Shown piece after piece: positions 3,659 through 48,094 of a stretch of 64,000 bases of DNA. The position numbers were made by a program, and so were the translations under genes. The stretch is from an uncultured Desulfatiglans sp. (GTDB lineage: Bacteria > Desulfobacterota > DSM-4660 > Desulfatiglandales > HGW-15). Location of the stretch: positions 13,547 to 77,546 of the forward strand of contig CAYWRH010000003.1 of assembly GCA_964460435.1 (NCBI GenBank), given 5' to 3'. Under the pieces are notes generated by a model that was given only the letters and a program-made list of their open reading frames with translations, did no database searches and was not told the origin of the DNA. The first letter of the stretch is position 1. Each line of letters begins with the position of its first letter.

Positions 3659-3882
3659 CTCCTCCTTAATTTGATTATTGCCTTGAGTTCTTTTTAAGGC
3701 GGCAATATTCTCAGGGAAGCATGAGTATGTCAAGTTAATCCATTGAATAGGAGATCTGTAATTGATTTTTAATGGCAGGGGGGATAAAAGGGATACGTGC
3801 AGGTATGGATCAGACAGAAGCGTGATTACAGTGCTGATCAATACCATCTTGAGAAATTAATGGATTATTAAAAGAGGATAAT

Positions 3883-5511: not shown

Positions 5512-5618
5512 TTATATATTAGAGGAACGCCTGTTCATAATCTTGACATTTAAAAATCCTCCTGTAAAATTTCGATAGATTAGAATAAATGATTTAATGT
5601 CTGAGGTGAATTTTTTGA

Positions 5619-6668: not shown

Positions 6669-6669
6669 C

Positions 6670-7875: not shown

Positions 7876-7891
7876 TAATAAACAACCTGTT

Positions 7892-11825: not shown

Positions 11826-13421
11826 CTACAAGCAGGTTACAGCAGCCTCTTCTATGGCAAGCCCCCTGTGATAGCGTTCAAAGAATTTATTAAACCCCTT
11901 TACATCCTCCGGGTCAGGTTTTACAGCCTTCTGGATGCTGTCACAAAAGACATTTGCAAGGAATTCAGGCAGGGTAACCTTTTTATCCTTTCGAACCATA
12001 AAGGCTGCAAGCAGTGCCATGCCCCATGCCCCCCCCTCTCCGGCGGTCTTCAGGGTGGAAACCGGTGTCCCTGTGGCCGCTGCCATGATCTTTTGACCAA
12101 CCTCCGGGGATTTGAAAAAACCGCCATGCCCTCTTATCTCATCAACCTTTGCGCCCTCTTCGTTAAAAAGCACATTAAGACCTGTCCGCAAGGCACACAA
12201 GGAGGTGAACAGATGGGTGCGCATAAAATTGGCCAGGTTGAATCGTGCTTCAGGTGAACGGACAAACAGGGGGCGGCCTTCAGTGAACCCGGTAATGTGT
12301 TCACCTGAAACATATCCGTAACTCATTAGCCCTCCGCAGTCAGGGTCGCCCTTCAGCGCCTGAGCAAGCAGGGTATCATAAAGAAGAGTCCTGGATACCC
12401 CTTTGCCCAGGCTTTCAAGCGCCTCGCCAAATAGATTTATCCAGCCATCATAATCGGTGCTGCAGTTATTTGAGTGGGCCATGCCCACAAGGTGCCCGTC
12501 AGGGGTGGTGACAAGGTCTACCTCATGGTGTACCTTTGTTAGCTCCTTTTCCAGGACAATCATTGCAAATACGGATGTGCCTGCTGATACATTGCCTGTC
12601 CTTTTTGCAACACTGTTGGTGGCTGCCATGCCGGTTCCCGCATCACCCTCAGGAGGCGCAACAGGAACACCAGGTTTAAGCATCCCTGAAGGGTCAAGCA
12701 GAAGGGCGCCCTCTTCTGTGAGCAGGCCGCCATTCTCCCCCGCGCACAGCACCTCAGGCAGGATTTCCCTGACCCGCCATCTGAACCCTTTTTCCTTTAT
12801 ATGGTTATCAAACAGGGCGCACATATCCATATTAAAATCCTTTGTTTCAAGATCAATGGGAAACATCCCTGAGGCATCGCCGATGCCTATTACCTTTTTC
12901 CCGGTGAGTCTAAAGTGGATGTAGCCTGCCAGGGTAGTCATAAAGGCGATATCCCTAACGTGCGCCTCATTATTGAGAACTGCCTGGTAAAGGTGCGCAA
13001 TGCTCCAGCGCTGGGGAATGGGATAATTAAAAAGATTGGTCAGCTCCTCTGATGCAGCCCCTGTTATATTGTTGCGCCATGTCCGAAAGGGGGTGAGCTG
13101 ATTGCCGTTACGGTCAAAAACCATATAGCCATGCATCATGGCGCTGAAACCAAGCGCCCGGATGTGGCTTAAATGGACACCGTATTTATCCCGGACATTT
13201 TGTGCAAGGTCTCTATAACAGCTCCTGAGACCTTCCCATATTCTCTCCAGTGGATAGGTCCATATGCCATTTACCAGGGAGTTCTCCCAGTCAAATCCCC
13301 CCGCGGCCAGAGGGTTGTGATCTTCACCGATCAGCACAGCCTTGATCCGGGTAGAGCCAAATTCAATGCCCAGTACAACATCTCCGCCTTTAATCATGGA
13401 CAGGGTTTTGTCTGTTTCCAT
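11826..13421 (-). CDS. FGGY-family sugar kinase, probable L-ribulokinase
   Basis: Phosphate-1 loop VLGIEFGSTRIKAVL plus FGGY-type C-terminal blocks. Sits between araA and araD. I use the ATG at 13421 (AGGA 8 nt upstream), because the track TTG start at 13487 would read through the promoter and operator. Confidence 0.75.
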   Translation of the reverse strand: METDKTLSMIKGGDVVLGIEFGSTRIKAVLIGEDHNPLAAGGFDWENSLVNGIWTYPLERIWEGLRSCYRDLAQNVRDKYGVHLSHIRALGFSAMMHGYMVFDRNGNQLTPFRTWRNNITGAASEELTNLFNYPIPQRWSIAHLYQAVLNNEAHVRDIAFMTTLAGYIHFRLTGKKVIGIGDASGMFPIDLETKDFNMDMCALFDNHIKEKGFRWRVREILPEVLCAGENGGLLTEEGALLLDPSGMLKPGVPVAPPEGDAGTGMAATNSVAKRTGNVSAGTSVFAMIVLEKELTKVHHEVDLVTTPDGHLVGMAHSNNCSTDYDGWINLFGEALESLGKGVSRTLLYDTLLAQALKGDPDCGGLMSYGYVSGEHITGFTEGRPLFVRSPEARFNLANFMRTHLFTSLCALRTGLNVLFNEEGAKVDEIRGHGGFFKSPEVGQKIMAAATGTPVSTLKTAGEGGAWGMALLAAFMVRKDKKVTLPEFLANVFCDSIQKAVKPDPEDVKGFNKFFERYHRGLAIEEAAVTCL

Positions 13422-28901: not shown

Positions 28902-29861
28902 ATGATAAAACAAATAAAGAGTGTTATGACAATTCTTGCGGCCATGTTGATAGTGTCAGGCTGTACAGGATCAGATAAAGATGACGGCACTATTACTGTC
29001 GGATTCTCACAGATAGGCGCTGAAAGCGCATGGAGGGTTGCCAATACAGAATCCATTCAGAGCGAGGCAGCAAAAAGGCCCAATATCAAACTGATCTTCT
29101 CTGATGCACAGCAGAAGCAGGAAAACCAGATAAAGGCTATTCGGAACTTTATTGCCCAGGGTGTGGATGTTATCGCATTTTCACCTGTTGTTGAAACCGG
29201 ATTTGAGGCTGTGCTCAGGGAGGCCAAAGATGCGGGTATCCCCGTTATCCTGATTGACCGTGCTGTAGATGTGCAGGATGATTCCCTATGGGTGACATTC
29301 ATGGGGTCAGACTTTGTTGAGGAGGGGCGCAGGGCCGCACGCTGGCTTGTTGAAAAGGGCTACACAGATGTAAAGATAGTGGAACTGCAGGGCACAGTGG
29401 GTTCAGCGCCTGCCATAGACAGGAAAAAGGGGTTTGAGGAGGTTATAAAGGAGCATCCCGGAATGGTGGTAATCAAAAGCCAGAGCGGCAATTTTACCAG
29501 GTCCGGCGGCAAAGAGATAATGGAGGCATTTCTTAAAACCGAAGGAAAGAATATCAATGTGCTCTTTTCACATAATGATGATATGGCCATAGGAGCCATA
29601 CAGGCGATAGAAGAATATGGACTGGCTCCGGGCAAGGACATTATTATTGTCTCAATTGACGCTGTGCGCGGCGCCTTTGAGGCCATGATAGAGGGAAAGC
29701 TTAACTGTACGGTTGAATGCAGCCCGCTCCTTGGGCCGCAGCTCTTTGATGCAGTGGAGACAATCGTTAAGGGTAAACCTGTTCCAAAAAAGATAGTAAC
29801 AGAGGAGGGTGTATTCCCGCAGGAGGTTGCGGCTGAGGTGATAGGCAGCAGGAAGTATTAG
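28902..29861 (+). CDS. ytfQ: ABC transporter periplasmic furanose-binding protein (YtfQ-like), lipoprotein
   Basis: Lipobox LIVSGC. Blocks closely match my recollection of E. coli YtfQ: VGFSQIGAESAWR, DAQQKQENQIKAIRNFIAQGVD, VELQGTVGSAPAIDRKKGFEE, SQSGNFTRSGGKEIMEAF, HNDDMAIGAIQAI. Confidence 0.8.
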   Translation: MIKQIKSVMTILAAMLIVSGCTGSDKDDGTITVGFSQIGAESAWRVANTESIQSEAAKRPNIKLIFSDAQQKQENQIKAIRNFIAQGVDVIAFSPVVETGFEAVLREAKDAGIPVILIDRAVDVQDDSLWVTFMGSDFVEEGRRAARWLVEKGYTDVKIVELQGTVGSAPAIDRKKGFEEVIKEHPGMVVIKSQSGNFTRSGGKEIMEAFLKTEGKNINVLFSHNDDMAIGAIQAIEEYGLAPGKDIIIVSIDAVRGAFEAMIEGKLNCTVECSPLLGPQLFDAVETIVKGKPVPKKIVTEEGVFPQEVAAEVIGSRKY

Positions 29862-29863
29862 TA

Positions 29864-31369
29864 ATGTCTGAATTGCTTGAAATAAGGGGCTTGAGCAGGA
29901 GCTTTCCGGGTGTTAATGCCCTTGACGCTGTGGATTTCACCCTGAGGAGTGGTGAGATCCATGCGCTCATGGGCGAGAACGGGGCTGGAAAATCAACCCT
30001 GATTAAGGTGCTTACAGGCGTCCACAAAAAAGAGAGCGGCTCCATTAAACTGTCCGGCAAAGGGTTTGAGGCATCCTCCCCCATGGACGCTGCCCGTAAA
30101 GGGATCAGCACCGTATACCAGGAGATAAATCTGCTTCCCAATCTTTCTATAGCAGAAAATATCTATATAGGCCGCCAGCCCATGAAAGGCGCCAGGATTG
30201 ACTGGAAAGCCATTAACATGAATGCCGGAGATGTTCTTGCCAGACTGGATCTTGAAATAGATGTAACTCTCCCCCTCTCCTCCTGCTCCACCGCTATCCA
30301 GCAGATGGTGGCAATTGCAAGGGCGCTTGATATCAGGGCAAAAATCCTGATACTGGATGAACCAACATCCAGCCTGGACATGGCAGAATGTAAAAACCTG
30401 TTCAGGATAATGAAGAGGCTTAAGGATGAGGGCATGGGCATCATCTTCATTACGCACTTTCTTGACCAGGTGTATGAGACATCCGACCGTATCACCGTCT
30501 TAAGGAACGGGCAGTTTATCGGTGAATACAAGACAGCAGAGCTTCCACGCTTCAAGCTGATATCAAAGATGCTGGGCAAAGAGCTGGAACAGGAGATGGT
30601 GTCGTCAGGCAAAAGACCGGGCGACAAATCTTCACGAAAAGAGCCCTTCATCACCCTGAATAATGTGGAAGAAAAGGGCGTTATATCTCCGATTGATCTT
30701 GAGATTTGCGAAGGTGAGGTGCTCGGCCTTGCCGGTCTGCTCGGTTCAGGCCGCACAGAGGTGGCAAAACTCATGTTCGGCATTAACAGGCCCACTTCAG
30801 GAACCATCATGATAGATAAACAACCTGTTGCCATTCACTCACCCAAGGATGCCATATCTCATTCCATCGCATTTTGTCCTGAAGACAGAAAAACTGAAGG
30901 TATTATCCCGGATCTTACTGTAAGGGAGAATATTATTCTGCCTCTTCAGGCCAGAAGAGGTTTCTTCAGGGGAATATCCCGAAGGGAGCAGGATAGAATA
31001 ACAGACCGTTATATAGAGCTGCTAAAGATAAAGGTATCTAGCAGGGAGCAGAAGGCCGGAACCCTGAGCGGCGGAAACCAGCAGAAGGTGATCCTTGCCC
31101 GCTGGATGGCCATGAACCCGCGTCTACTGATACTTGATGAACCAACGCGCGGCATAGATGTAGGAGCAAAGGCAGAGATTGAAAAATTGATCTTCAGATT
31201 AATGGAGGAGGGTCGCAGCATACTCTTTATATCATCGGAGCTTGAAGAGATCGTTCATACATGCAGCCGTGTTGCAATACTGAAGGAGAGAAAAAAGGTG
31301 GGAGAGATATCTGGTGAAAACATATCTGAAGAGAAAATCATGACAGCGCTTGCGCAGGAAGGTACTTAA
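29864..31369 (+). CDS. ytfR: Sugar ABC transporter ATPase, duplicated ABC domains (YtfR-like)
   Basis: 501 aa. Walker A GENGAGKST. Signatures LSSCSTAIQQ and LSGGNQQKV. Walker B ILILDEPTS and LLILDEPTRGIDV. Confidence 0.85.
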   Translation: MSELLEIRGLSRSFPGVNALDAVDFTLRSGEIHALMGENGAGKSTLIKVLTGVHKKESGSIKLSGKGFEASSPMDAARKGISTVYQEINLLPNLSIAENIYIGRQPMKGARIDWKAINMNAGDVLARLDLEIDVTLPLSSCSTAIQQMVAIARALDIRAKILILDEPTSSLDMAECKNLFRIMKRLKDEGMGIIFITHFLDQVYETSDRITVLRNGQFIGEYKTAELPRFKLISKMLGKELEQEMVSSGKRPGDKSSRKEPFITLNNVEEKGVISPIDLEICEGEVLGLAGLLGSGRTEVAKLMFGINRPTSGTIMIDKQPVAIHSPKDAISHSIAFCPEDRKTEGIIPDLTVRENIILPLQARRGFFRGISRREQDRITDRYIELLKIKVSSREQKAGTLSGGNQQKVILARWMAMNPRLLILDEPTRGIDVGAKAEIEKLIFRLMEEGRSILFISSELEEIVHTCSRVAILKERKKVGEISGENISEEKIMTALAQEGT

Positions 31370-31377
31370 GATAGATT

Positions 31378-32436
31378 ATGGGCACTGTAAAGAAAAAGAT
31401 TTCTCTTATTAATCCAGTTTCCTCTGAACTGGGCATCATCTATCCCCTGCTGGCCTTTATAGCTATACTTTTGTTCAATCTTGTTTTCACAGAGGGGTTT
31501 TTCCACATTGAGATAAAGAACGGCCACCTCTTCGGTTCACTTATAGATATATTCAACAGGGGCGCGCCGGTCATACTTGTCACAATCGGTATGACTCTGG
31601 TTTATGCTACCGGCGGTGTTGACCTCTCTGTCGGGGCAATCATTGCTATATCAGGCGCCCTTGCAGCGCAGCTTATCCGGCCTGATTATGTTAAAGGCAT
31701 CCTTGAATATGGTGATCAGACCTCTTTAATCACAGTGCTTCTTGTGCCCCTTGTCCTTTCTGTCATCCTTGGCCTCTGGAACGGCTTTCTTGTGGCCTAC
31801 ATAGGTGTGCAGCCCATCATCGCGACACTTATACTCATGACTGTGGGCAGGGGTATAGCCCAGCTTATCACACACGGGCAGATCATTGTTTTTGAACACG
31901 CTTCATTCCAGTTCATAGGAAGCGGCTTCTTCCTGGGCCTCCCCTTTCCTGTTATCATGGTGATTCTCCTCTTTGTTCTCACATGGGCGCTTACCAGAAA
32001 AACCACACTTGGTCTTTTCATTGAGGCATCAGGCGCAAATGGTCTTGCAAGCCGTTATATGGGCATACCCGTAAGGATGATAACAACCTTTACCTACGGG
32101 TTTTCCGGCTTCTGCGCTGGCCTCGCAGGATTGATCATTACAGCGGATATAAAGGCTGCGGATGCCAACAATGCAGGGATATTCATGGAACTTGACGCCA
32201 TTGCTGCTGTTATTATCGGGGGGACAATAAACGGCGGACGTTTTTCAATGGCAGGCGCTGTAATCGGCGCCCTTATTATCCAGTCACTGACCACAACCAT
32301 TATTACACGCGGTGTCCCGCCCCAGGTCGTTCTGGTGTTCAAGGCAGTAATAATCATCATTGTTGCGCTGATCCAGTCTAGAAAGCTTCGTGACCAGCTC
32401 TCCCTTATTTTACATTCAGGAGACAGATCATCATGA
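31378..32436 (+). CDS. ytfT: Sugar ABC transporter permease (YtfT-like)
   Basis: Polytopic. Ribose/galactofuranose-type permease blocks: GGVDLSVGAIIAISGA, TLGLFIEASGAN. Order matches ytfQRT-yjfF. Confidence 0.8.
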   Translation: MGTVKKKISLINPVSSELGIIYPLLAFIAILLFNLVFTEGFFHIEIKNGHLFGSLIDIFNRGAPVILVTIGMTLVYATGGVDLSVGAIIAISGALAAQLIRPDYVKGILEYGDQTSLITVLLVPLVLSVILGLWNGFLVAYIGVQPIIATLILMTVGRGIAQLITHGQIIVFEHASFQFIGSGFFLGLPFPVIMVILLFVLTWALTRKTTLGLFIEASGANGLASRYMGIPVRMITTFTYGFSGFCAGLAGLIITADIKAADANNAGIFMELDAIAAVIIGGTINGGRFSMAGAVIGALIIQSLTTTIITRGVPPQVVLVFKAVIIIIVALIQSRKLRDQLSLILHSGDRSS

Positions 32437-33419
32437 GATTCCGGCTGAGTCAGAAAAACATACCGATCCTTTCAACCTTTCTCGTATTCATACTGCTCTA
32501 TGTCGCTGGCGCATTTGCATACAAAGGTTTTTTTTCTCTCAGGGTTTTCATTAACCTTTTTATAGATAATGCATTTGTCGGCATCATTGCGGTTGGGATG
32601 ACCTTTGTTATCATATCAGGAGGTATTGATCTTTCTGTCGGCGCCCTTGTTGCATTTACCGGCGTGTTGAGCGCCAACCTGCTTTCACATACAGAGATGC
32701 CGCCATTTATGGTTATTATTATCTGTCTCTTCTGCGGTGCAGCGCTGGGCTTTTGCATGGGATGCCTGATACACCTTCTTGAAATGCCGCCGTTTCTTGT
32801 AACCCTTGTGGGTATGTTCCTTGCCCGGGGGCTATCATTCGTGATAAGCCTTGACTCTGTGCCCATCCGCAATGAACTGTTTCTTGCTATCTCAAAGGCA
32901 TCTATTCCTCTGGGAAGTGGAATCAAGATGCCTCTCTATGCAGTCAGCTTTATTATAATGGCCATTCTTGGCGCATATATCCTGCACTATACACGTTTCG
33001 GCAGAAATATTTATGCCATTGGGGACAATGAGAAATCGGCTATCCTCATGGGGCTTCCTGTTGGAAAGACCAAAATCCTTATATACACCATTAACAGCAC
33101 CATCTGTGCAGCAGGCGGGCTGGTCTATTCCCTCTATACCCTCGCAGGATATCCGCTTGCAGGGACAGGGCTTGAACTGGATGTAATTACCGCCGTTGTT
33201 ATCGGCGGAACCCTTTTAACAGGCGGAGTGGGCTTTATAGAGGGGACTGTAATAGGTGTCATGATACTGGGGCTCATCCAGACAATCATCACATTTCAGG
33301 GAAACCTGAGCACCTGGTGGACAAAGGTCTTTATCGGTATCCTTCTGTGCATCTTTATCCTTTTGCAGCGATATCTTACAGCAGGAAAGATTAAATCCAT
33401 TAAAAGGGACAATCAGTAA
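32433..33419 (+). CDS. yjfF: Sugar ABC transporter permease (YjfF-like)
   Basis: ATGA overlap with the previous gene. Blocks: GGIDLSVGALVAF, RFGRNIYAIGDNEKSA. Confidence 0.8.
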   Translation: MRFRLSQKNIPILSTFLVFILLYVAGAFAYKGFFSLRVFINLFIDNAFVGIIAVGMTFVIISGGIDLSVGALVAFTGVLSANLLSHTEMPPFMVIIICLFCGAALGFCMGCLIHLLEMPPFLVTLVGMFLARGLSFVISLDSVPIRNELFLAISKASIPLGSGIKMPLYAVSFIIMAILGAYILHYTRFGRNIYAIGDNEKSAILMGLPVGKTKILIYTINSTICAAGGLVYSLYTLAGYPLAGTGLELDVITAVVIGGTLLTGGVGFIEGTVIGVMILGLIQTIITFQGNLSTWWTKVFIGILLCIFILLQRYLTAGKIKSIKRDNQ

Positions 33420-36513: not shown

Positions 36514-37470
36514 ATGAAATGTATAGTAATCTACTACTCATGGACAGGAAACACAAAACAGATCGCATCAGCAATACACTCAGGTATTAAGGAGATCTTT
36601 GATGAATGTGATATTATCTCCATGAAGGAGGTGGATATCAATAAATTAAGAGAATACGATCTGATTGGTCTGGGTTCCTTTGTGCAGAGTTTTAGGGAGC
36701 CTGCTCCTGTAACTGAATTTGTAGATGCCATGCCTGATATGACCGGCAAATATGGCTTTACCTTCTGTACGCACGGCACATGCGCAGGTAGCTACATAGA
36801 AAGGATGGTAAAAGGGCTAAGGGGTAAGGGTCTTAAAGTTACCGGGTGGAATGACTGGTATGGCAGCGGTTTTATACCTCTCATGCCAAAACCATATTAT
36901 ACTGATGGACATCCGGACCAGATTGACCTTGATGAGGCTAAAGAGTTCGGAAAGGAGATAGCGCAGCGCAGCCTCAGGATAGCCAGAGGAGAGACCCAGC
37001 TTATGCCTGAACTACCTGAAAGGGAGGAATACGACAGGCTTTATGGCGAACTGATGGACCTTGGCGGTAGGGAGCAGATGGCAGATATGGCAAAATTGAA
37101 ACCGGTGTATAATCCTGAAAAGTGTCTTTATCCGAAATGTTCAAAATGCATGGATAACTGCCCCACCAGAAGCATTGATCTGACCGATTCTCCAAAAATC
37201 AACTACAATACATGCGGCCCCTGCATGGTCTTTTTATGCGAGCAGCTCTGCCCGACAGGCGCAATGGAGGTAAACTGGGATATAGCGGATAATATCATGA
37301 ACACAATGACATCCATCTTTAAAAGGCTTGCCGAGCCAATGGAGAAATACAGGGAGCTCCGCCGTTTCAGAAGCCTTATAACAGCGGAAGAAGGTAGCGG
37401 CACCCCTTTATACAGGAAACAAAGACGCCCAAAGCTTGTTATCCGTGATGGTGTGATGAGAGAGAGCTGA
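36514..37470 (+). CDS. Flavodoxin-like domain fused to a 2x[4Fe-4S] ferredoxin domain
   Basis: Flavodoxin N-terminus MKCIVIYYSWTGNTKQIA. Two Cys groups later: CLYPKCSKCMDNCP and CGPCMVFLCEQLCP. Strong RBS GAAGGAGG. Confidence 0.7.
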   Translation: MKCIVIYYSWTGNTKQIASAIHSGIKEIFDECDIISMKEVDINKLREYDLIGLGSFVQSFREPAPVTEFVDAMPDMTGKYGFTFCTHGTCAGSYIERMVKGLRGKGLKVTGWNDWYGSGFIPLMPKPYYTDGHPDQIDLDEAKEFGKEIAQRSLRIARGETQLMPELPEREEYDRLYGELMDLGGREQMADMAKLKPVYNPEKCLYPKCSKCMDNCPTRSIDLTDSPKINYNTCGPCMVFLCEQLCPTGAMEVNWDIADNIMNTMTSIFKRLAEPMEKYRELRRFRSLITAEEGSGTPLYRKQRRPKLVIRDGVMRES

Positions 37471-37529
37471 TAAGCAGGGGTTACAAGCAGGAGAGAAATG
37501 TATGCTATAATCGTTATGGGAGGTTTAAT

Positions 37530-39461
37530 ATGACTAACTGGCATGATTTTGTTAACAGGGAAGGAACAACCCCCTCCTGGGCTTACCCGGTTGACTATGA
37601 AAAAGAAAATCAGATAGAGACAGATGTCCTGGTTATTGGCGGTGGTATTGCCGGATGCTGGGCAGCGATCAGCGCAGCGAGAAAGGGAGTCAGGGTGGCG
37701 CTTGTGGAGAAGGGTGATACGGTAAGGAGCGGAGCAGGCGGGCCCGGCTGCGACCACTGGGGCCAGTGCCCGGCCAACCCCCATTCAAAGGTCGACCCGG
37801 ATGAATGGGCGAAAATATTAGCTGAACATCCGGGAACAATGGCGGAGATACCTAAGGATATGCCTGAAATTTCCTACGGAAACGGCATAGCAAGCCAGAT
37901 CCAGTGCCGGGAGAGCTATGATACCCTTCTTGAGATGGAGCAGATGGGCGGGCAGATAAGGGATATTCATGACGAGTATGTAGGGGCTGAGGGCAGATAT
38001 GATGATACCAAATTTATGATCTCACCACGCACCAGCCCCAATCATGCCAATGAGATAGTTATACGCATCTGGGGCACCACATTCAAACCTGCCTTAAAAA
38101 AGGAGTGCCAGAGGCTGGGAGTAAAGATCTTTGACCGGGTCATGGTCACAAGCCTCTTGACCGAGAACGGCGAGCAGGGTGCAAGGGTTATAGGCGCAAC
38201 CGGCTTTAATAACCGCACGGGTGAGTTCATGATTTTCAAATCAAAGGCCTCTGTGCTTGCTGCTGCAGGCGATTTCTACATGTGGATGCTTAACACAGAG
38301 CATGCCGGCTGCCGTCAATTTCGTTCCAGAAATGCAACCGGCGATGGCCTTGCCATGGCCTGGAAGGCAGGCGCAGAGCTAGTCTTGATGGAAAAAACCG
38401 TGCCTCTCATGCTGGGCACAGGATACAAGCATAACTGGTATGGCGGCGCAGGAGACGCAAGTTATGAAAATCTTCAGCTTGTAGATGCCAACGGTAAAAA
38501 ACTACCCTGGCCCACACAGGGCTGGGCGGATGGGGGGGCAATGTTCCCGCCTCCTGATGTTATGGCCGCCATCCGAAAGGGTATTAGTAATGGTGAATGG
38601 GCGCTTCCATTTTATGGTGATTTCCCTGCCATGCCTGATATTGAGCGGCGTACAACATGGGATCTCATGCTGGGGCAGGAATCGACGACAAAGATTATTA
38701 CAAGTACCTATGAAAGGGCCGGATTTGATCCGTCCAGACATCTCCTTCAAAACTATGCCTTTATCGAAGGAGAGAATCACTCCCAGTGGCGGACTGCAAG
38801 GGGTGGCGGGCCGATAGTGGACTGGAATCTCAAGACAACCCTGGACGGCCTCTATGCTGCCGGGGAACAGCTCTTTTCATTCGGCGATCACAGCTTTGCA
38901 GCCACGACCGGCAGGTATGCGGGCCGCAAGGCAGCAGATTATGCGAATCAGACTGGCCAGCCCAAAATATGCAGGGAACAGGTCGATCTTGAAAAGGCCC
39001 GTGTCTATGCGCCGGTTAAACGCACTGGCGGCATCGAATGGAAGGAGCTGAACGCAGGTATTGCAAGGACAATGCAGTATTTCTGCAGTGAATACAAGAC
39101 AGAGCTCCTTTTAAACATGGGTCTTGACACGCTTAAGGAGATAGAAGAGGTGTTTGTACCCAGGCTATACGCCCTTGACCCGCATAAACTGATGCGAAGC
39201 ATTGAAGACTTAAGCATGCTTGCCCATGCACAAATGGTGCTGCACGCCTCCCTGGCCCGCAAGGCAAGCAGCAGGGTTCTCAATTTTTACAGGATAGATT
39301 ACCCCGAGATTGACCCGAAGGAATGGTCAAAGTTTATTACAATAAAGCAGGAGAACGGCAAGGTCAAAACAGGCGAGATGCCCTTAAGATACTGGGGTGA
39401 CATGAAGATAAATTACGAGTCATATAACAGGGATTATAAAGGGGTCTATAAAGCCAGATAA
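37530..39461 (+). CDS. FAD flavoprotein of the AprA / fumarate reductase superfamily
   Basis: Dinucleotide fold ETDVLVIGGGIAGCWAAISAARKGVRVALVEKGDTVRSGAGG. Its 643-aa length and the adjacent AprB-like ferredoxin recall adenylylsulfate reductase architecture. Confidence 0.7.
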   Translation: MTNWHDFVNREGTTPSWAYPVDYEKENQIETDVLVIGGGIAGCWAAISAARKGVRVALVEKGDTVRSGAGGPGCDHWGQCPANPHSKVDPDEWAKILAEHPGTMAEIPKDMPEISYGNGIASQIQCRESYDTLLEMEQMGGQIRDIHDEYVGAEGRYDDTKFMISPRTSPNHANEIVIRIWGTTFKPALKKECQRLGVKIFDRVMVTSLLTENGEQGARVIGATGFNNRTGEFMIFKSKASVLAAAGDFYMWMLNTEHAGCRQFRSRNATGDGLAMAWKAGAELVLMEKTVPLMLGTGYKHNWYGGAGDASYENLQLVDANGKKLPWPTQGWADGGAMFPPPDVMAAIRKGISNGEWALPFYGDFPAMPDIERRTTWDLMLGQESTTKIITSTYERAGFDPSRHLLQNYAFIEGENHSQWRTARGGGPIVDWNLKTTLDGLYAAGEQLFSFGDHSFAATTGRYAGRKAADYANQTGQPKICREQVDLEKARVYAPVKRTGGIEWKELNAGIARTMQYFCSEYKTELLLNMGLDTLKEIEEVFVPRLYALDPHKLMRSIEDLSMLAHAQMVLHASLARKASSRVLNFYRIDYPEIDPKEWSKFITIKQENGKVKTGEMPLRYWGDMKINYESYNRDYKGVYKAR

Positions 39462-39471
39462 GGAGATCATC

Positions 39472-39789
39472 ATGACACAGAAAAAACTGAATGCCTTACC
39501 CAATATTATTACACCGAACACACAGGTCATATTCAACCCTGATATATGTATCGGATGCAACCTATGTGTCGAGGTCTGCCAGGTGGATGTATACATGCCC
39601 AATCCTGTGAAAGGGAAACCGCCAATCATCCTTCATCCTGATGAATGCTGGTATTGCGGATGCTGCGTCACGGATTGCCCGTGTCCGGGTGCAATTAATT
39701 TCAACTGGCCCTTGCAGCAGAGAGGTTCATGGAAAGACAAAGTTACAGGCAAGGTGTACAGGGATAATGTGGCGTTTCCAATTCAATGA
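39472..39789 (+). CDS. AprB-like di-cluster [4Fe-4S] ferredoxin
   Basis: CIGCNLCVEVC ... PDECWYCGCCVTDCP. The second motif closely resembles the AprB CWECYSCVKxCP block. Confidence 0.7.
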   Translation: MTQKKLNALPNIITPNTQVIFNPDICIGCNLCVEVCQVDVYMPNPVKGKPPIILHPDECWYCGCCVTDCPCPGAINFNWPLQQRGSWKDKVTGKVYRDNVAFPIQ

Positions 39790-40070
39790 CAGGTGTTGAA
39801 CAGAAGGCCGTCATGCAGAATGCCAGCTCTGCCGCGCCGGTTGATGATGAAACCTGGTTTTATACATTTTCAGGTGGCATGATCGGTTATTTGCCAAAAC
39901 ATTGAATTTGGAGTAACCTTTTATTTATATAGTTAGCTGATAGCTGACCGCTGAAAGCCTCATCCAGAATTTCATTATTTATGGATGGAGACTATATAGC
40001 ATTATTAAACAGGTTATTCCCTGCCAGAGGCAGGGGATTAGGTAACAAATGATAAAAAAAGGAGTGTGAC

Positions 40071-41780
40071 ATGAACAGATTATTATCAGCATTTAATATT
40101 GTGCTTCTGGCTTTCTTGGCTGTCCCGTCTCTATCCATGGCTCAAAGCGCAGGAGATACCGGAACAGAGAAACAAGTTCAATACGAGGCATTGAGCCCCT
40201 GGGCAGATGTGGACCCGATTCCGGTGCGTGGAATCTCTCCCAGACTTGATAGCCTGAAAGGGAAAAAGATCGGGTTATACGTCAACACTAAACGCGCAGC
40301 CATGCCGATCGCAAAATCAGTTGATAAGAGACTGAAGGAGATGTACCCCGATATCCAGACAATAATTTATCAATCTACAGAACCTAATGTGAATGAGATC
40401 GAGACAAAGAACAAGGAAAAATTCACCGAATGGCTAAAGGGCATTGACGCTGCGATTGCCCTGGTGGGTGACTGAGGCTCCTGCACAAAGTACCTCGTCT
40501 ATACAGGAATATCAGTCGAGGACTTTGGCAAGCCGGTCGTGTTACTGGCAAATAATGGCTTTATCAACGACGCCCATTCAGCCGCATCAAGCAAAGGTAT
40601 GCCCGGGATCAGGATTATTGGAGAGACAGTGCCCTGCGAATCTACCGTCATTTCAGATATAGAAAAAGGGGTAGCGGAAGTAATGAAGGAGGTGGTTGAT
40701 GCCCTTGTAAGGCCTCTTACTGCAGATGAGAAATCCCCGAAACAGCAGACAGGCAAAACCCCAAGGGTCGCCTTTAAGGGAACCCTTCAGGAGATAAACC
40801 AGTTCTTTTACCGCAAGGGGTGGGGCGATGGCCTGCCCATTATTCCGCCTACAGAGGAGGCGGTTAAGGAGATGCTTAAAGGGACCGATCTGCCCCCGGA
40901 TCATATTGTGGCAAAAATCATCCCGAGAAAGGGAAAGGCCACTGTCGAGAAGATAGCTATCAATGCTGTGATGGCTGGCGCTCTACCCACCCACATGCCT
41001 GTCCTGATTGCAACAGTGGAGGCCTTTTCCGATCCAAAGGCCAGGTTTGATACATTTGAGGTTAGCACAGGTTCATGGGCCCCATCCCTGACCATAAACG
41101 GCCCTATCAGAAGAGATATACATATCAATTCCGGTTCCGGCTCGCTTAGTCCGGGGAATATTGCCAATTCTGCAATAGGAAGGGCAGTTGGCCTTATTGT
41201 CAAGAATATCGGCGGGGCAAGAAAGGCCGTTGAGGATATGGGAGTAATAGGTAACCCTGGCAAGTACAGTCTTGTGATTGGCGAGGATGAAGAGAATAGC
41301 CCCTGGGAGCCACTCAGTGTTGAGCGCGGCTTTAAAAGGGAAGAGAGCACTGTAACAGTCTTCTTTCCAAACACCTTTATCCAGACAGTACCCGGAGGAA
41401 CAGATGCAAAGGGAATTCTTGATACCCTTGTAACCATGGGCACTACAAGCATGTCGAGCGTCATACTGATTCCCTCATGGGCAAAGGTTTTATCAGGTGA
41501 AGGGTATACAAAGCAGATGGTCAAGGATTACATAGCACAACACAGCAAGCCCGTTGTAATCTCAGGTTTTGAAACCATAACGAATCCCGATAAAATGGAT
41601 ACAGAAAACCTCATGATCCTGGTAGCTGGCGGGCCCGGTTCGTTTATAGGCCTGTTAAAGAGCGTTGGCCCTGGTTTTTTCAACAACGCCCTTGTAACAA
41701 AAAAGATCGTGCTACCAAAGGATTGGAACAAACTGGTTGCAAAATACAGCAATCTTGTGCCGGTTTATGAGAGGTACTGA
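40071..41780 (+). CDS. Candidate selenoprotein (read-through of TGA 40473-40475): signal peptide, GrdB-like U-G-S-C domain, conserved W-G-DGLPIIPPT domain of unknown function
   Basis: Track ORFs 40071..40475 and 40539..41780 are in one frame with only the TGA between them. The fusion (569 aa) is colinear with the 574-aa paralog at 45491..47215. A hairpin lies 18 nt downstream. See findings. Confidence 0.6.
40493..40521 (+). promoter_or_regulatory. SECIS-like hairpin downstream of the in-frame UGA
   Basis: CCUCG(U)CU-AUA / UAU-(C)AG(U)CGAGG with a 6-nt apical loop CAGGAA. The loop starts 29 nt after the UGA. Confidence 0.4.
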
Positions 41781-41799: not shown

Positions 41800-44202
41800 A
41801 TGAAAGAGTATCTCTCCAGGATTGTCAGGGGGAATTTCCCCCTGTGCTTTGAAAAGGCGCGCCTTATTACGGAATCTTTTATAAAGACAGAAGGTGAGCC
41901 AGCCATAATCCGGTATGCAAAGGCCCATGCCAATGTCCTTGAAAATATCAGTGTAATTATTGATAAGGATGAACTCTTTGTTGGTGAAGGGGCGAGCAAA
42001 CCCTGGGGCGCTGAGATTGATCCGTTCCTGGGCATATGGAAAGAGGAGGCAATTAGGGGCGCAGTGGAAGAGGGAATTATCTCGATGGATGATTCAGACT
42101 GGCCCCTTATGCGCGAGCTTGGCAGCTACTGGGCAAAAAGATGTTCCGAGTATGCGCAGTCAAAGCTGCTTGATGAGAGATTTTTCAATTACCTCAGGGT
42201 TGGCATTACATTGCCGCCCATGAAAAACAGGGATGAGTTCAGGGGCGCATATGCTGGCAGCGGCCTCTGCCTCTCATTTAACTTTACCGATTGTTATACA
42301 GACTTTTCGCGATGGATGAAGGGGCTTAACCCCATAATAGGGGAGATAGATGAAGAGCTTAAAAATCTCAGATTTTTATCTCTGGAGGCTGTTAACAAAA
42401 AACAGTTTCTGGTTGCTTCGCTTATTGTGCTGAAGGCAATAGTCCGGTTTGCAGAAAGATATGCTGAAGAGGCTGAAAGACTGGCCGCTATAGAAGCAGA
42501 TGGTGCGTGCAGAAAAAATCTAAAACGTATTGCCACAGCCTGCCGAATTGTTCCGGCCAATCCGCCCGGGAATTTCTATCAGGCCATGCAGTCCTTATGG
42601 TTCAACCAGATCCTGTCTACACCCAGCTCAACACATAATTTCGGCAGGTTTGATCAGTATATGTACCCCTTCTATAAAAAGGATAGGGATGAGGGAAAGA
42701 TCACGGATGAAGAGGTACTGGATCTTTTGTGCGAACTGCGGGTAAAGAGCATGCGGCCTGAAAATATCAAGCTTTCAGCGGCCAAACGTTCACAGCACTC
42801 AGGGTTTGCCAAATGGCGAAATATGACAATCGGCGGCGTAACTTCTGATGGTAAAGATGCGAGTAATGAACTGACATGGCTCGTGCTTGAAGCGGCAAAC
42901 CGTGTGAGAACACCTCACCACACTATTACCATGAGGGTGCATGATAAAACACCCGAAGATCTGATGCTCAAGGCGCTTGAGGTGGTAAAAACCGGTATTG
43001 GAATGCCTGCATTTGCGCTGGATAAATCCTTTATTGATTATATGACTTCAGGCGGAATCCCCCTGAATGAGGCGCGTGACTATCACCTTGCTGGTTGTGT
43101 GGACCCTGCCATTCCTGGCAAACAGAGTTTTCTGGCAGGTCTCTTTTTTGTGGTTCCAAAGGTGCTTGAGATCTTTCTAAATAACGGGATAGACCCACGA
43201 ACAGGGCTCAATATCGGGCCGGACATATCTGATGTTGAAACCTTTAAAACCTTTAGCGATTTCTATGATGGCTTTAAGAAATATCTCAAACATTTTATCG
43301 GCATATGGCATGAACACAGCTTTCTAGTCTCAGGGCGATCCGGGGATGTATATGGATATAACGATATCGTTGAAATGGTTGAAACGCTTCTTATGCAGGA
43401 CGGGGTCAGGATGGGTAAGCCGCTCTCAAACAGGGACGCTGTGCCCCCATACGATTTCAGGGCTGTAATGATACCGGTTGGGGCAATTAACACAGCCGAT
43501 TCGCTTGCAGCCATTAAACAGCTTGTATTCGAAACAAGGCAGATTACCCTTAAAGAGCTGAAACAGGCCCTGAGCGCTAACTGGGAAGGCCATGATGATA
43601 TCAGGAGATTGTGCCTGAAGTCGCCCAAATACGGAAACGACAATGATTATGCAGACTCTATTGCAGCAGACCTCTATAATTTTTTCCTTAAGGAGGAATC
43701 AAATTACCATTCCTTTGGAAGGCCTGTAAACGCAAAGGTGAGGGGAATTGGAGGCGCCTCCATTTCATCCATGTTTGCGGGCGGGTCAATTATCGGGGCC
43801 ACACCTGACGGCAGATATGCCGGAACAACATTATCTGACGGAACAGTATCTCCTGCCCAGGGCATGGACAAAAAGGGTCCCACAGCCATGCTGAGGAGTG
43901 CCGCAAAAATCAACCAGGCAGCATGTTCATCTGCGCTTCTTAACATCAAGCTGCACCCGTCCTTTATTGGAGGCAGAGAAGGGCTTGCAAAACTCGGAAT
44001 GCTTATAAAAACCTATGCCGGTATGGGCGGCAAGTGGGTACAGCTAAATGTAGTTGGAAACGAGGAGTTGCTCGATGCACAGCAGCACCCGGAGAATCAC
44101 AGGGATCTGATTGTAAGGGTTGCAGGATACAGCGCCTATTTTACTGATCTTGGCAAAGGGGTGCAGGATGATATCATCCGGCGTATGGAAGTGGCCATTT
44201 GA
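41800..44202 (+). CDS. Glycyl radical enzyme (PFL2 / glycerol-dehydratase-like family)
   Basis: 800 aa. Cys loop HLAGCVDPAIPG (Cys codon 43096-43098). C-terminal glycyl radical motif RVAGYSAYF (Gly codon 44125-44127). Confidence 0.9.
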   Translation: MKEYLSRIVRGNFPLCFEKARLITESFIKTEGEPAIIRYAKAHANVLENISVIIDKDELFVGEGASKPWGAEIDPFLGIWKEEAIRGAVEEGIISMDDSDWPLMRELGSYWAKRCSEYAQSKLLDERFFNYLRVGITLPPMKNRDEFRGAYAGSGLCLSFNFTDCYTDFSRWMKGLNPIIGEIDEELKNLRFLSLEAVNKKQFLVASLIVLKAIVRFAERYAEEAERLAAIEADGACRKNLKRIATACRIVPANPPGNFYQAMQSLWFNQILSTPSSTHNFGRFDQYMYPFYKKDRDEGKITDEEVLDLLCELRVKSMRPENIKLSAAKRSQHSGFAKWRNMTIGGVTSDGKDASNELTWLVLEAANRVRTPHHTITMRVHDKTPEDLMLKALEVVKTGIGMPAFALDKSFIDYMTSGGIPLNEARDYHLAGCVDPAIPGKQSFLAGLFFVVPKVLEIFLNNGIDPRTGLNIGPDISDVETFKTFSDFYDGFKKYLKHFIGIWHEHSFLVSGRSGDVYGYNDIVEMVETLLMQDGVRMGKPLSNRDAVPPYDFRAVMIPVGAINTADSLAAIKQLVFETRQITLKELKQALSANWEGHDDIRRLCLKSPKYGNDNDYADSIAADLYNFFLKEESNYHSFGRPVNAKVRGIGGASISSMFAGGSIIGATPDGRYAGTTLSDGTVSPAQGMDKKGPTAMLRSAAKINQAACSSALLNIKLHPSFIGGREGLAKLGMLIKTYAGMGGKWVQLNVVGNEELLDAQQHPENHRDLIVRVAGYSAYFTDLGKGVQDDIIRRMEVAI

Positions 44203-44384: not shown

Positions 44385-45314
44385 ATGAAAAACATTTTCA
44401 TCAATATCTTTGTATTTGTATCTTTTTCACTTTTCTGCTCTTTTTCTATGTGCAGTGATGCATCTGCCTCAACCGGCAAAATGGACTCAGCCCTTCTGAT
44501 AAAGGTGATGGATCACTATCTTGGCCAGCTTGTAAAAAACAATCCTGAAGCTCTTTTGGTCGCAAAGGATCTCAAGGTCACAGAGAACGGTTACCCCATT
44601 AAGCTTGGCAAAGGGCTCTTTCAGACGGCAAAGGAGATAACCTACAGACAATATATGACAGACCCCTCAACGAATCAGGTTATGGTATTTGGCGTGGTAA
44701 AGGAATCTATGCTCCTTGCAAATTTCATGGTTCGATTAAAGGTTGTTAAAGACAAGATCACAGAGATTGAGACAATTGTTTCAAGAAAAGATGAGGCATC
44801 ATTTGCCAGCCCTGAAGCGCTTAAAGAGCCAAGACCCATATACGCAAAGGTGCTTTCCGAATCGGAGCGTTCTTCACGCGATAAACTTATAAAAATTGCG
44901 AACAGCTATTTTGACGGCATAGAACAAAACACAGGCGGGATAGTGCCATTCCACAAGGATTGCAACCGTTTTGAAAATGGCACCCAGACCACCAATAACC
45001 CGGCCACGATTGCGACTGGATGTAAAGAACAGTTTGATAACAAGGTATACGCCTATATCACTGAGGTCAGAGACCGGCGCTTTCTGATGGCTGATGAGGA
45101 AAAGGGGCTGGTATTTGGCATATTCATTTTTGATATGCCCGGCAAAAGGGAAGACTTTAAATATTTTCCAACACCCTTTGATGAACTTCCAGCCAGATTC
45201 TACAAGCCAAGGTCCCTGATACTTGCTGAGATGTTCAAGATTGTCGATGGACAAATCCTCTCTATTGAAGCAGTAATGGTTAATGCACCCTTCGGGGCTG
45301 TATCAGGCTGGTAA
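44385..45314 (+). CDS. Secreted hypothetical protein
   Basis: RBS AAAGGAGAA. Signal peptide FVFVSFSLFCSFSMCSDASA. No family motif recognised. Confidence 0.6.
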   Translation: MKNIFINIFVFVSFSLFCSFSMCSDASASTGKMDSALLIKVMDHYLGQLVKNNPEALLVAKDLKVTENGYPIKLGKGLFQTAKEITYRQYMTDPSTNQVMVFGVVKESMLLANFMVRLKVVKDKITEIETIVSRKDEASFASPEALKEPRPIYAKVLSESERSSRDKLIKIANSYFDGIEQNTGGIVPFHKDCNRFENGTQTTNNPATIATGCKEQFDNKVYAYITEVRDRRFLMADEEKGLVFGIFIFDMPGKREDFKYFPTPFDELPARFYKPRSLILAEMFKIVDGQILSIEAVMVNAPFGAVSGW

Positions 45315-45490: not shown

Positions 45491-47215
45491 ATGCCTTTAG
45501 AAAGGTTTGAATTAAGAGTGCTTAACCCGAGGGGTGAGACCGAAAAAAATCCTGTTATGCCTGCATCTCCCCGCCTTAAGGGTCTGAAGGGAAAAAGGAT
45601 CGGGATAATAAGGATAAGGATTCAGGCAGGCGAAATACTGTTCCCTTATCTGGAAAAGGCATTAAGGGAGCAGGCCCCGGACACCATGTGGGAGATACTG
45701 GATATACCATTATCAGAAAATGGCGATGAAAGGGCAGAGAGGATCAGGGAGACGGTTCAGAAATATGACGGCATTGTTATTTCCATGGCAATATCAGGGG
45801 GCAGCACAACAAGGCTCACACCAGATGCGGTGTTTATTGAGAAGATGGGGATACCTGCTGCCTTTATAGTAACCAGATGTTTTGAGACTACTGCAAGATA
45901 TTTTGCCCGGAGTCAGGGTCTTCTGGATGTAGCCGTAGCCCCCTTTGCCTTTGATTATGTGCCCCCGGCAGATGAAATAGTAAGGCTGAATCTGGCGGAT
46001 GACCTTGCAGCCAAAGTTATCCACTCCCTCACCGAATGGTGCCCAGGGCCACCTGTTATTGAACCTGTGACCGAAAGGGTGCTCACCTACACAGGCATTT
46101 CTTATATGGATGCTTATGAAGGGATGGAAAAATCTTTTCTAAAGCATGGCTGGAGTGACGGCTTACCGATAGTGCCACCCACCAGGGAGGCCGTTAACAG
46201 AATGCTTGAGGGGACAGAGCTTTCTCCTGAACATCTTATTGCTGTGTTTCCTCCTGGACAGGGAAAGGCAACAGTAGAAAAAATTGCTGTTAATGCTGTA
46301 ATGGCAGGCTGTCTGCCCCAGTATATGCCCCTTATCCTTGCTGCTGTTGATGCTATTATTGACCCGGCCTTTGATCTTGTTGGTGTCCAGTCAACATCAG
46401 GGCAGCTTGCGCCCCTGTTGATAGTAAGCGGCCAGAAACTGATTGAAAAACTTAATATAAATGACAGTTACTGCACCCTTGGCCCGGGCTGGCGGGCTAA
46501 CAGCTCAATAGGCAGGGCGCTTAAACTTATAATGATGAACATCGGTCACACCTGGCCCGGTATCAACGATATGAAGGCATTCGGTAATCCGTTCAGGTAT
46601 GTCACCCTCATAGGTGAGAATGAAGCAGCATATTCAGGTGCATGGGAACCCTTAAGGGTTACTGAAGGTTATTCAAAAGATCAGCCCACATTGAGCGTGA
46701 TGCCTGCCATGTCATGGCAGCCTGACCTTGTGCTGCCCACTCCACCGGGCGTTGAAAGGATAATCGAACACATAACACTTCAGGCAAAGGCAAAATATGA
46801 CCGTTATGCAAATAACTGTTACTGCAATAATCTGGTACTGATATCACCCACTGCCTTTGATGCCATCCGCAGGGAAGGGGTGTCACAAAAGGAGCTGAAG
46901 CAGGCATTATATGAAAGGATTCAACTGCCAGGCTCTAAGGTTTTTGATGGCAGAGAGAGGATAGGGCTTATTAAATTCCCCAAATGGGTGGTTGATAAAC
47001 ATAAAGCAGACCCTGAAGCACCTGTGCCCATACTGATGAGCCCTGAGAGCCTTAAGATCTGTGTAACAGGAGGTCCTGGGCCTGATATGATCGCCTATAT
47101 AGGCACATGGGGGTATGGGCCTTCCCACTTTATTACCAAACCAATAAAGATACCTTCAGACTGGGATGAACTGCTGGAAAAATACAGGGGATGGGAAAGC
47201 CCAACTGTGAAGTGA
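45491..47215 (+). CDS. Sec-less, signal-less paralog of the 40071..41780 protein (unknown family)
   Basis: Blocks shared with the candidate selenoprotein: SPRLKGLKGKRIG, HGWSDGLPIVPPTREAV, GKATVEKIAVNAVMAGCLPQYMP. It has S-G-G-S where the other has U-G-S-C. Confidence 0.7.
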   Translation: MPLERFELRVLNPRGETEKNPVMPASPRLKGLKGKRIGIIRIRIQAGEILFPYLEKALREQAPDTMWEILDIPLSENGDERAERIRETVQKYDGIVISMAISGGSTTRLTPDAVFIEKMGIPAAFIVTRCFETTARYFARSQGLLDVAVAPFAFDYVPPADEIVRLNLADDLAAKVIHSLTEWCPGPPVIEPVTERVLTYTGISYMDAYEGMEKSFLKHGWSDGLPIVPPTREAVNRMLEGTELSPEHLIAVFPPGQGKATVEKIAVNAVMAGCLPQYMPLILAAVDAIIDPAFDLVGVQSTSGQLAPLLIVSGQKLIEKLNINDSYCTLGPGWRANSSIGRALKLIMMNIGHTWPGINDMKAFGNPFRYVTLIGENEAAYSGAWEPLRVTEGYSKDQPTLSVMPAMSWQPDLVLPTPPGVERIIEHITLQAKAKYDRYANNCYCNNLVLISPTAFDAIRREGVSQKELKQALYERIQLPGSKVFDGRERIGLIKFPKWVVDKHKADPEAPVPILMSPESLKICVTGGPGPDMIAYIGTWGYGPSHFITKPIKIPSDWDELLEKYRGWESPTVK

Positions 47216-47482: not shown

Positions 47483-47794
47483 TCAAGGCTGCGCATCTTT
47501 TTGAACAGCCTGGGCTACCAATTTTACACCAAGTGCAGAGCATACACGGCTTATTGTATCAAAACGCGGGTGTGAGTTTGGCCGCAGGGCTTTGTATAGT
47601 GCCTCTCTTGATATCCCTGCAGCATTGGCCACCTCAGTCATACCTCTTGCCCGTGCAGCTACTCCAAGGGCGTGTGCCAGCTCTCCCGGGTCTCCATCTT
47701 CAATAACGATCGTCAAGTATGCGGCTATATCCTCTTCACTTTTCAGGTGCGCCGCCATATCAAAATCCGGCATTTCTGATATTTTTTTTCCCAT
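47483..47794 (-). CDS. Antitoxin, HTH addiction-module antidote protein (HigA-like)
   Basis: 103 aa. HTH segment GMTEVANAAGISREALYKALRPNSHPRFDT. Starts 3 nt after the toxin gene. Confidence 0.8.
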   Translation of the reverse strand: MGKKISEMPDFDMAAHLKSEEDIAAYLTIVIEDGDPGELAHALGVAARARGMTEVANAAGISREALYKALRPNSHPRFDTISRVCSALGVKLVAQAVQKDAQP

Positions 47795-47797
47795 ACT

Positions 47798-48094
47798 TTA
47801 ATCCTCCAATTCGGCAGCCATTTTTATAGCCTTTGCAATATCTGCTGCCTGTGTTTTCTTTCCACCACCAGCCAACATCACAATCATAGTTTCTCCCCTC
47901 TGGGCGTAATACATCCGCCAGCCCTGACCGAAATGCTCCCTCATTTCAAAAACACCAGCAGCAACAGCCTTGATATCTCCAAGATTCCCATTCTGTGCCC
48001 TGTCAATTCGGCGAGCCAACCGAATCCTAGTCATTCGGTCCTTTATCCCGTCGAGACATTTATCAAAATCAGGTGTTGTTTTGATCGTAATCAT
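47798..48094 (-). CDS. Toxin, addiction-module killer protein (RelE/HigB-like)
   Basis: 98 aa. Pattern FDKCLDGIKD...RIRLARRIDRAQNGNLGDIKAVAAGVFEMREHFGQGWRMYY is typical of this killer family. The toxin-first gene order is HigBA-like. Confidence 0.8.
   Translation of the reverse strand: MITIKTTPDFDKCLDGIKDRMTRIRLARRIDRAQNGNLGDIKAVAAGVFEMREHFGQGWRMYYAQRGETMIVMLAGGGKKTQAADIAKAIKMAAELED

Follow-up and report, generated by a model that had tools for sequence, protein, structure and literature searches.

An in-frame UGA predicted to be read as selenocysteine in a long-form UGSC family gene of an uncultured Desulfatiglans

The window analysed here, a stretch of 64,000 nucleotides from an uncultured Desulfatiglans sp., contains at positions 40071-41780 a locus that the list of open reading frames (ORFs) splits into two ORFs of the same frame, 40071..40475 and 40539..41780. 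A first-pass annotation made from the letters alone had regarded the two as one interrupted gene for a candidate selenoprotein. Translation of 40071-41780 together with the ORF list bears out its premise, as the region comprises 569 sense codons in a single frame and the sole internal stop is the TGA at 40473-40475. This codon is preceded by DAAIALVGD and followed by GSCTKYLVYTGISVEDFGKPV, resulting in the motif VGD-U-GSC-TKY, where U stands for selenocysteine (Sec). The fused gene's own terminator at 41778-41780 is likewise TGA, and decoding of UGA would therefore be context-dependent. When all six frames of the window were scanned, we observed neither a second convincing pair of long ORFs bridged by a TGA nor any further selenoprotein gene. 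The features of the locus are compiled in Table 1, together with those of L022, one of the homologous loci (numbered L001 onwards) used for comparison.

Table 1. Features of the window and of the homologous locus L022 in a gammaproteobacterial metagenome-assembled genome; positions refer to the window or to L022, respectively.
Feature	Position	Strand	Basis or remark
Window: Shine-Dalgarno-like AGGAG	40060..40064	+	6 nucleotides 5' of the ATG at 40071; read from the sequence
Window: putative long-form UGSC selenoprotein gene, 569 residues, internal Sec-UGA	40071..41780	+	one frame; paralogue colinear; sense-codon homologues continuous
Window: predicted Sec-type (export) signal peptide, 24 residues, cleavage after S-M-A	40071..40142	+	composition and conservation
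Window: UGSC domain, residues 53-213, spanning the TGA	40227..40709	+	Pfam PF24696 and NCBIfam NF041046
Window: UGA predicted to be read as selenocysteine, residue 135	40473..40475	+	TGA in the same column in 162/190 homologous genes
Window: candidate selenocysteine insertion sequence (SECIS) stem-loop	40477..40534	+	outer helix formed by 40477-40497 and 40517-40534; within it a mini-hairpin whose loop CAGGAA lies at 40504-40509
Window: TGC, Cys138, proposed partner of Sec135 in the U-G-S-C dyad	40482..40484	+	sequence; homologue alignment
Window: C-terminal domain, ~350 residues	40740..41777	+	without Pfam or PDB relative
Window: glycyl radical enzyme gene, 20 nucleotides 3' of the selenoprotein gene	41800..44202	+	PFL-like and Gly_radical domains; functional link putative
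Window: DUF8021 (PF26061) protein with signal-peptide-like N-terminus	44385..45314	+	neighbour
Window: paralogue, 574 residues, S-G-G-S for U-G-S-C, without signal peptide	45491..47215	+	PF24696; alignment
L022: thioredoxin reductase (TrxR)-like gene	2954-3859	-	
L022: selB	3862-5766	-	
L022: orthologue with TGA	6001-7653	+	
L022: selA	7802-9211	+	
L022: selA-like fragment	10265-10501		
L022: second TGA-containing paralogue	12853-11369	-	
L022: tRNA-SeC	13017-13108	-	

The codon at the position of residue 135 was read in homologue DNA from 80 loci of species-representative genomes and 80 loci of metagenomes. As shown by the alignment, an in-frame TGA occupies this column in 162 of the 190 homologous genes present at these 160 public loci, that is, in 81/102 aligned genes of the genome loci and in 81/88 of the metagenome loci, and the remaining genes carry Cys, Ala, Met or Ser. 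The TGA-carrying homologues reach down to ~30% identity and share the flanks D-U-G-[SAT]-C-T, so that UGA is aligned with Cys or other sense codons between two conserved flanks. Their named sources are Desulfatiglans (the closest, 89% identical), Acidobacteriota, Dehalococcoidia and other Chloroflexi, Nitrospiraceae, Gammaproteobacteria and Tectimicrobiota. Cys, encoded by TGC, is found at the Sec site in L067 and L076, both from Betaproteobacteria; these two clear Cys forms have C-G-T-S at the motif and no second Cys. L068, with an uncertain alignment, is a possible third case. Met or Ala occurs at this site mainly in Clostridia (Firmicutes), where the downstream Cys is usually kept, and these clostridial forms read [MA]-G-S-C. 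Cys138 is retained by the majority of the Sec-containing homologues and likewise by the majority of the Ala and Met forms. A conserved TGA that is framed by conserved flanks and has sense-codon homologues is what a Sec codon classically looks like, and, as judged from the alignment, this pattern of conservation cannot result from an ordinary gene boundary, a pseudogene or an assembly error. Some loci harbor tandem arrays of two to three family paralogues, each with an in-frame TGA and a downstream hairpin, namely L046 and L053 of Chloroflexi and L008, L013, L017, L019 and L026 of Dehalococcoidia.

The fused product had further been described as colinear with the uninterrupted paralogue encoded downstream in the window. 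Indeed, a single BLASTP segment crosses the TGA and links residues 34-559 of the fused protein to residues 4-565 of the paralogue (30% identity, E = 4e-66). The S-G-G-S that was noted in the paralogue at the columns of U-G-S-C is moreover typical of its whole clade, which reads [ST]-G-[GT]-S in the homologues P0121-P0240 and so has hydroxyl residues at both places of the dyad. The part of the protein surrounding the TGA scores 87 bits on Pfam family PF24696, the gathering score of which is 25, over profile positions 15-171 of 172, which makes it a member of this family; the paralogue scores 67.3 bits. The U/C-G-S-C motif is present, and its column and flanks recur in the 162 homologous genes mentioned above. 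The family name that the first-pass annotation had given, 'UGSC family (seleno)protein', likewise proved to exist as NCBIfam NF041046, and the N-terminal domain matches this model as well as PF24696. The score of 73.8 bits extends over the whole 147-position profile and stays below the curated cutoff of 125. Since this equivalog describes a single-domain protein of ~147 amino acids, whereas the present protein comprises 569 residues and an additional domain of ~350 residues, the latter has to be considered a domain-level relative rather than a member of the equivalog.

Downstream of the UGA, the hairpin that had been noted at 40493-40521 with the loop CAGGAA is present, as the inner part of a longer helix extending over 40477-40534. 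Folding of the 73 nucleotides from the UGA onwards yielded a minimum free energy (MFE) of -25.7 kcal/mol (z = -2.86), and 2/200 shuffled sequences were equally stable. The 62 nucleotides from the UGA represent the most stable window of this length in the entire gene, with -24.5 kcal/mol, a value reached by 0/259 within-gene controls; the 48-nucleotide window after the UGA, which cuts through the helix, has an unremarkable rank of 0.32. The element is thus a stability outlier within its gene, and it is kept in orthologues. When identical codon use was counted among sequence pairs sharing an amino acid, the 15-codon window starting at residue 134 showed 62% synonymous-codon identity across 32 orthologues, the maximum of the gene, compared with 41% overall; by hand arithmetic the value is ~58% when the invariant TGA column is omitted. 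The helix region of 68 nucleotides is 90% identical across 30 orthologues, the proteins of which are only 56-89% identical. In the same 30 orthologues, 94.1% of the cells of the 17-pair helix hold standard pairs, as compared with 30-52% when the partner strand is slid. We observed two compensatory pairs: at pair 15-54, A-U is replaced by G-C in L132 by two synonymous third-position changes, and at pair 25-45, G-C is replaced by A-U in L086. In distant paralogues, a hairpin of at least 7 uninterrupted base pairs is located ~14-38 nucleotides after the UGA in 28/46 cases, in contrast to 12.4% of control windows. The stem sequences of these hairpins are quite different, and their loops are G/U-rich, for instance GUG, GUU or CGUGU.

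The consensus for bacterial SECIS (bSECIS) elements comprises an apical loop of 3-9 nucleotides with a G among its first two nucleotides, a distance of 16-37 nucleotides from the UGA and an MFE of -7.5 kcal/mol or lower (PMC13188914, Fig. 2). With a loop of 6 nucleotides, a spacing of 28 nucleotides and an MFE of -25.7 kcal/mol, the present element lies within the ranges for these three features, and the G residues of its loop fall at positions 3-4. No Rfam family was matched, either in a gathering-score search of the window or in a lenient search around the TGA, as is expected for a bacterial SECIS. Taken together, the element at 40477-40534 is well supported as a conserved structure and may plausibly serve as a SECIS, though it is not a textbook one.

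The N-terminus of the fused protein, MNRLLSAFNIVLLAFLAVPSLSMA followed by QS after the predicted cleavage site, resembles a signal peptide, with a basic n-region, a hydrophobic core (maximal 12-residue Kyte-Doolittle mean of 2.68) and an A-x-A-like end. In agreement with the earlier annotation, which had assigned such a peptide to the fused protein and none to the paralogue, this segment is kept in orthologues of Desulfatiglans and Acidobacteriota as well as in several distant paralogues, whereas none of the Dehalococcoidia orthologues has it, nor does the window paralogue. It was seen in the orthologues L001-L007, L009, L011, L012 and L028. This distribution indicates that the family has exported as well as cytoplasmic forms.

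The fold of the UGSC domain was assessed on a structural model of the paralogue, which reached a predicted local distance difference test (pLDDT) score of 86.3 and a predicted template modelling (pTM) score of 0.88. In this model the domain is flavodoxin-like, with a (beta-alpha)5 arrangement in which strand 3 (residues 94-100) precedes the Sec position and helix 3 (residues 103-118) follows it, and not thioredoxin-like. Its top matches in the PDB are azoreductases, flavodoxin domains and lumazine synthase, all of them weak (E about 6e-4, template modelling (TM) scores of 0.16-0.52). The C-terminal domain of the window protein was modelled by AlphaFold with a pLDDT of 79.8 and a pTM of 0.85 and has no credible structural neighbour, the best Foldseek match in the PDB having E = 0.014 and a TM score of 0.26-0.30. 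Likewise, the C-terminal domains of both proteins gave no Pfam match at E <= 10, and a family profile searched against PDB sequences returned nothing below E = 0.13. In a library of 1.84 billion proteins the domain is nevertheless common, with 4,792 cluster representatives matching at E <= 1e-3 and 937 doing so at E <= 1e-30. The residues that are invariant in it (D253, T261, T291, N298, R371, E405 and E407) are of polar or acidic type, and Cys and His are not among them. Many of the matching proteins are 340-370 residues long and match from residue ~10-20 onwards, and these may be stand-alone or truncated; some of ~710-740 residues apparently contain two copies.

The neighbourhood of the family genes is variable among the loci. 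A TrxR-like gene, the most informative of the recurring neighbours, adjoins the family gene in 16/160 loci, mostly directly downstream and on the same strand (L008, L010, L017, L022, L023, L059, L063, L069, L071, L101, L114, L116, L123, L124, L127 and L134). The encoded flavoprotein of ~300 residues contains a CxxC motif and matches TIGR01292 with 226 bits, which is under the cutoff of that model. At the nine genome loci with such a gene, the family protein is always a Sec-containing form without signal peptide. In L022, the TrxR-like gene, selB, a TGA-carrying orthologue, selA, a second TGA paralogue and the tRNA-SeC gene are located within 13 kb; counting the selA-like fragment, seven such features are packed into the 10 kb of L022:2954-13108. 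In addition, selB and a TrxR-like gene flank the family gene in the metagenome loci L101 and L127, and selB stands beside the gene in three loci in all. Other recurrent neighbours comprise short-chain dehydrogenases/reductases (SDRs), reductases of the old yellow enzyme (OYE) type beside Met and Ala forms, CoA-transferases, FAD flavoproteins, LysR regulators and ABC transporters, which indicate catabolic or reductive metabolism.

Taken together, we consider it very probable that 40071..41780 is one gene that encodes a long-form UGSC selenoprotein of 569 residues operating by the decoding and redox mechanism described here; as far as comparison of sequences can tell, its in-frame UGA almost certainly encodes selenocysteine. 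Translation would start at the ATG at 40071, and the UGA at 40473 would be read as Sec by means of SelB and Sec-tRNA(Sec), recruited by the stem-loop 40477-40534 a few nucleotides downstream. When selenium or the insertion machinery is limiting, ribosomes would stop at the UGA and release a fragment of 134 residues. In the version encoded in the window, the 24-residue signal peptide would direct transfer of the protein across the cytoplasmic membrane. Sec135 and Cys138 are predicted to lie at the strand-to-helix junction of the flavodoxin-like domain, where they would most likely cycle between selenol/thiol and selenenylsulfide, and the C-terminal domain of ~350 residues probably holds the substrate or a partner that is served by this couple. 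In the cytoplasmic relatives, the electrons would most likely be delivered by the dedicated TrxR-like flavoprotein encoded beside the gene.

Several observations weigh against this interpretation. Within the 64-kb window we detected no selA, selB, selD or tRNA-Sec gene, and no tRNA gene at all, and for every member of the UGSC family the insertion of Sec is a prediction from sequence. Moreover, there is no TrxR-like gene near the window copy, and an exported protein would in any case be out of reach of a cytoplasmic reductase. Paralogues without both Sec and Cys are abundant, which implies that the C-terminal domain does not depend on the dyad and has a role of its own. Regarding the RNA element, the helix is no energy outlier in several of eleven orthologues, with ranks of 0.02-0.34 in the 62-nucleotide test, and covariation is thin, as the two compensatory pairs are matched by 13/500 shuffles in a region that is 90% identical in nucleotides. 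Finally, the loop CAGGAA has its G residues at positions 3-4, and not at positions 1-2 as the bSECIS rule asks (PMC13188914).

It is conceivable, though on balance we think it unlikely, that Sec is inserted and yet serves as the substrate-attacking nucleophile of a reductase in the manner of GrdB or PrdB. In such an enzyme there would be no thioredoxin-like relay, the C-terminal domain would form the pocket and Cys138 would resolve a Se-C or Se-S adduct. Consistent with this possibility are the adjacent TrxR-like gene, an arrangement shared with Stickland reductase operons such as grd, the catabolic or reductive neighbours (SDRs, OYE-type reductases, CoA-transferases and FAD flavoproteins) and the multi-paralogue arrays in Dehalococcoidia and Chloroflexi. 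The UxxC type of Sec motif is shared with PrdB, as listed in Table 2 of PMC2398784, and it is in this respect that the resemblance to GrdB noted by the first-pass annotation stands. The resemblance does not extend to homology, since the GrdB/PrdB family PF07355 was matched by 0/54 UGSC family members, even at E <= 5. Furthermore, neither partners of the GrdA, GrdE or PrdA type nor a pyruvoyl-type partner subunit are encoded nearby, the proteins differ in domain architecture, Sec is missing from many family members and the whole Sec/Cys pair from some, and the window copy, with its signal peptide, is apparently exported and thereby removed from NAD(P)H.

A broader proposal can be made only tentatively. 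The long-form UGSC proteins might supply the catalytic subunit in an extensive and so far unrecognised class of Sec-dependent reductases. The cytoplasmic forms would be recycled by the TrxR-like flavoprotein in a Stickland-like manner, and the exported forms of diderms would carry out this chemistry in the periplasm by means of another electron supply; the DUF8021 protein is a candidate partner. Thousands of clusters contain the orphan C-terminal domain, and in some genomes the sel genes stand beside the family gene, as though the Sec machinery chiefly served its product.

Far less probable than the nucleophile function is that the TGA is a genuine stop and that the locus encodes two proteins, an exported N-terminal one of 134 residues and a second one of 413 residues that starts at the GTG at 40539. 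In all public sources, gene callers divide the gene at the TGA, and the proteins of 340-370 residues that match the C-terminal domain from residue ~10-20 are numerous in the representative library. Correspondingly, the 120 database proteins nearest to the query (69-91% identical) all represent the C-terminal ORF only and cover the C-terminal 67-75% of the query. Their lengths, however, range from 383 to 427 amino acids, and such varying choices of the start indicate that there is no conserved independent initiation site. In line with the earlier annotation, which had found no convincing ribosome-binding site for the GTG at 40539, the nearest upstream purine-rich stretch is ~17 nucleotides away and nothing AGGAG-like occurs at a usable distance. 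In addition, the protein sequence encoded by the 21 codons between the TGA and this GTG is conserved among homologues as distant as 30% identity, the UGSC domain model crosses the TGA without a break, the sense-codon homologues are continuous, and a TGA fixed in one column of 162 genes is unexpected for an ordinary gene boundary. Least probable of all is a pseudogene lesion, an assembly error or a non-Sec read-through by near-cognate insertion of Trp or Cys, for which one could invoke the single metagenome contig and the Sec machinery of the host not being seen in the window, as opposed to the same codon at the same site in 162 independent genes, the standard genetic code in all named TGA-carrying taxa, the gene's own TGA terminator, the conserved structured RNA directly downstream, and the physical linkage of selB, selA and tRNA-Sec to the gene in relatives.

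The one-gene selenoprotein reading places the protein within a family that has been on record since 2007, when the 'UGSC-containing protein' was described as a predicted selenoprotein of unknown function (PMC1976440). A survey of 2016 found it in 26 sequenced bacteria (PMC5029168), and it is still listed as uncharacterised in reviews of 2022 and 2026 (PMC9312934, PMC13188914). Literature searches on PF24696 and on Desulfatiglans selenoproteins retrieved nothing. The present protein shares with the family described by Zhang and Gladyshev (2007-2008; NF041046, PF24696) the domain, the U-G-S-C motif and the routine mis-annotation. It also shares the predominance of Sec over Cys, with 255 Sec versus 21 Cys forms in the GOS data (PMC2398784), and 162 TGA versus 3 Cys forms here. 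It differs in its length of 569 instead of ~147 residues, that is, in the additional C-terminal domain of ~350 residues and the signal peptide. The same paper suggests a thioredoxin-like fold for the UGSC family, whereas the paralogue model points to a flavodoxin-like one. A 'UGSC/Unknown_1' fusion is reported in the GOS data (PMC2398784, Fig. S1A), in which Unknown_1 may or may not correspond to the present C-terminal domain.

The thioredoxin-fold selenoproteins with UxxC or CxxU motifs, such as the thioredoxin-, peroxiredoxin- and DsbA-like ones, likewise carry their Sec/Cys dyad at a helix N-terminus, and exported versions exist in both groups. In contrast to these, where the dyad follows the first strand, the UGSC domain has the (beta-alpha)5 arrangement with the dyad after strand 3 in the paralogue model. 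The protein is a hitherto unannotated addition to a known family and of a kind that is already on record, and its long exported architecture is poorly described. One more UGSC selenoprotein will not surprise a specialist. The gene and every close public homologue are nevertheless annotated as a truncated 'hypothetical protein' with an orphan upstream ORF, and selenoproteome counts for Desulfobacterota, Acidobacteriota and Dehalococcoidia consequently miss a widespread family. In aquatic metagenomes, UGSC proteins rank with the predicted selenoproteins of highest abundance, and the function of the family is uncharacterised. The linkage to the TrxR-like gene and selB, at one locus to selA and selC as well, the flavodoxin-like fold and the large orphan C-terminal domain provide leads for a first biochemical test.

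The gene that follows the selenoprotein gene in the window encodes a glycyl radical enzyme, which matches TIGR01774 with 515.7 bits against a cutoff of 678; it belongs to the PFL2/dehydratase group and remains under every equivalog cutoff. Such an enzyme adjoins family genes only in the window and in L001, L037 and L044, and in none of the metagenome loci. A conserved operon with the glycyl radical enzyme was considered and dropped, as the pairing recurs in just 3/160 other loci, and the proposed mechanism was for this reason not built on it. A radical-SAM activase was not recognised near the enzyme. At 36514-39789, on its 5' side, the window encodes an EFR1-family flavodoxin/ferredoxin, an AprA/FrdA-like FAD flavoprotein and a small 2x[4Fe-4S] ferredoxin. 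The Dehalococcoidia locus L058 has, close to a family gene, a copy of the AprA/FrdA-like flavoprotein with 72% identity.

Homologues of the DUF8021 protein are encoded near family genes in L001, L004, L006, L048, L087, L129 and L154, several of which carry exported forms, and the protein may be a periplasmic partner of the exported form. It carries two conserved Cys residues.

Further away, a two-gene pair on the minus strand at 47483-48094 resembles a HigB/HigA toxin-antitoxin system, with a match to PF21716 (dnstrm_HI1420) and a weak match to PF05973 (Gp49). The region 3883-26368 represents a plant-polymer utilisation block, which comprises three carboxylesterases, two arabinofuranosidase-like proteins, araA, an FGGY kinase, a class II aldolase, a LacI regulator, an OYE-type flavin oxidoreductase and two FAD_oxidored proteins, and which is followed by a sugar ABC transporter at 28902-33419.

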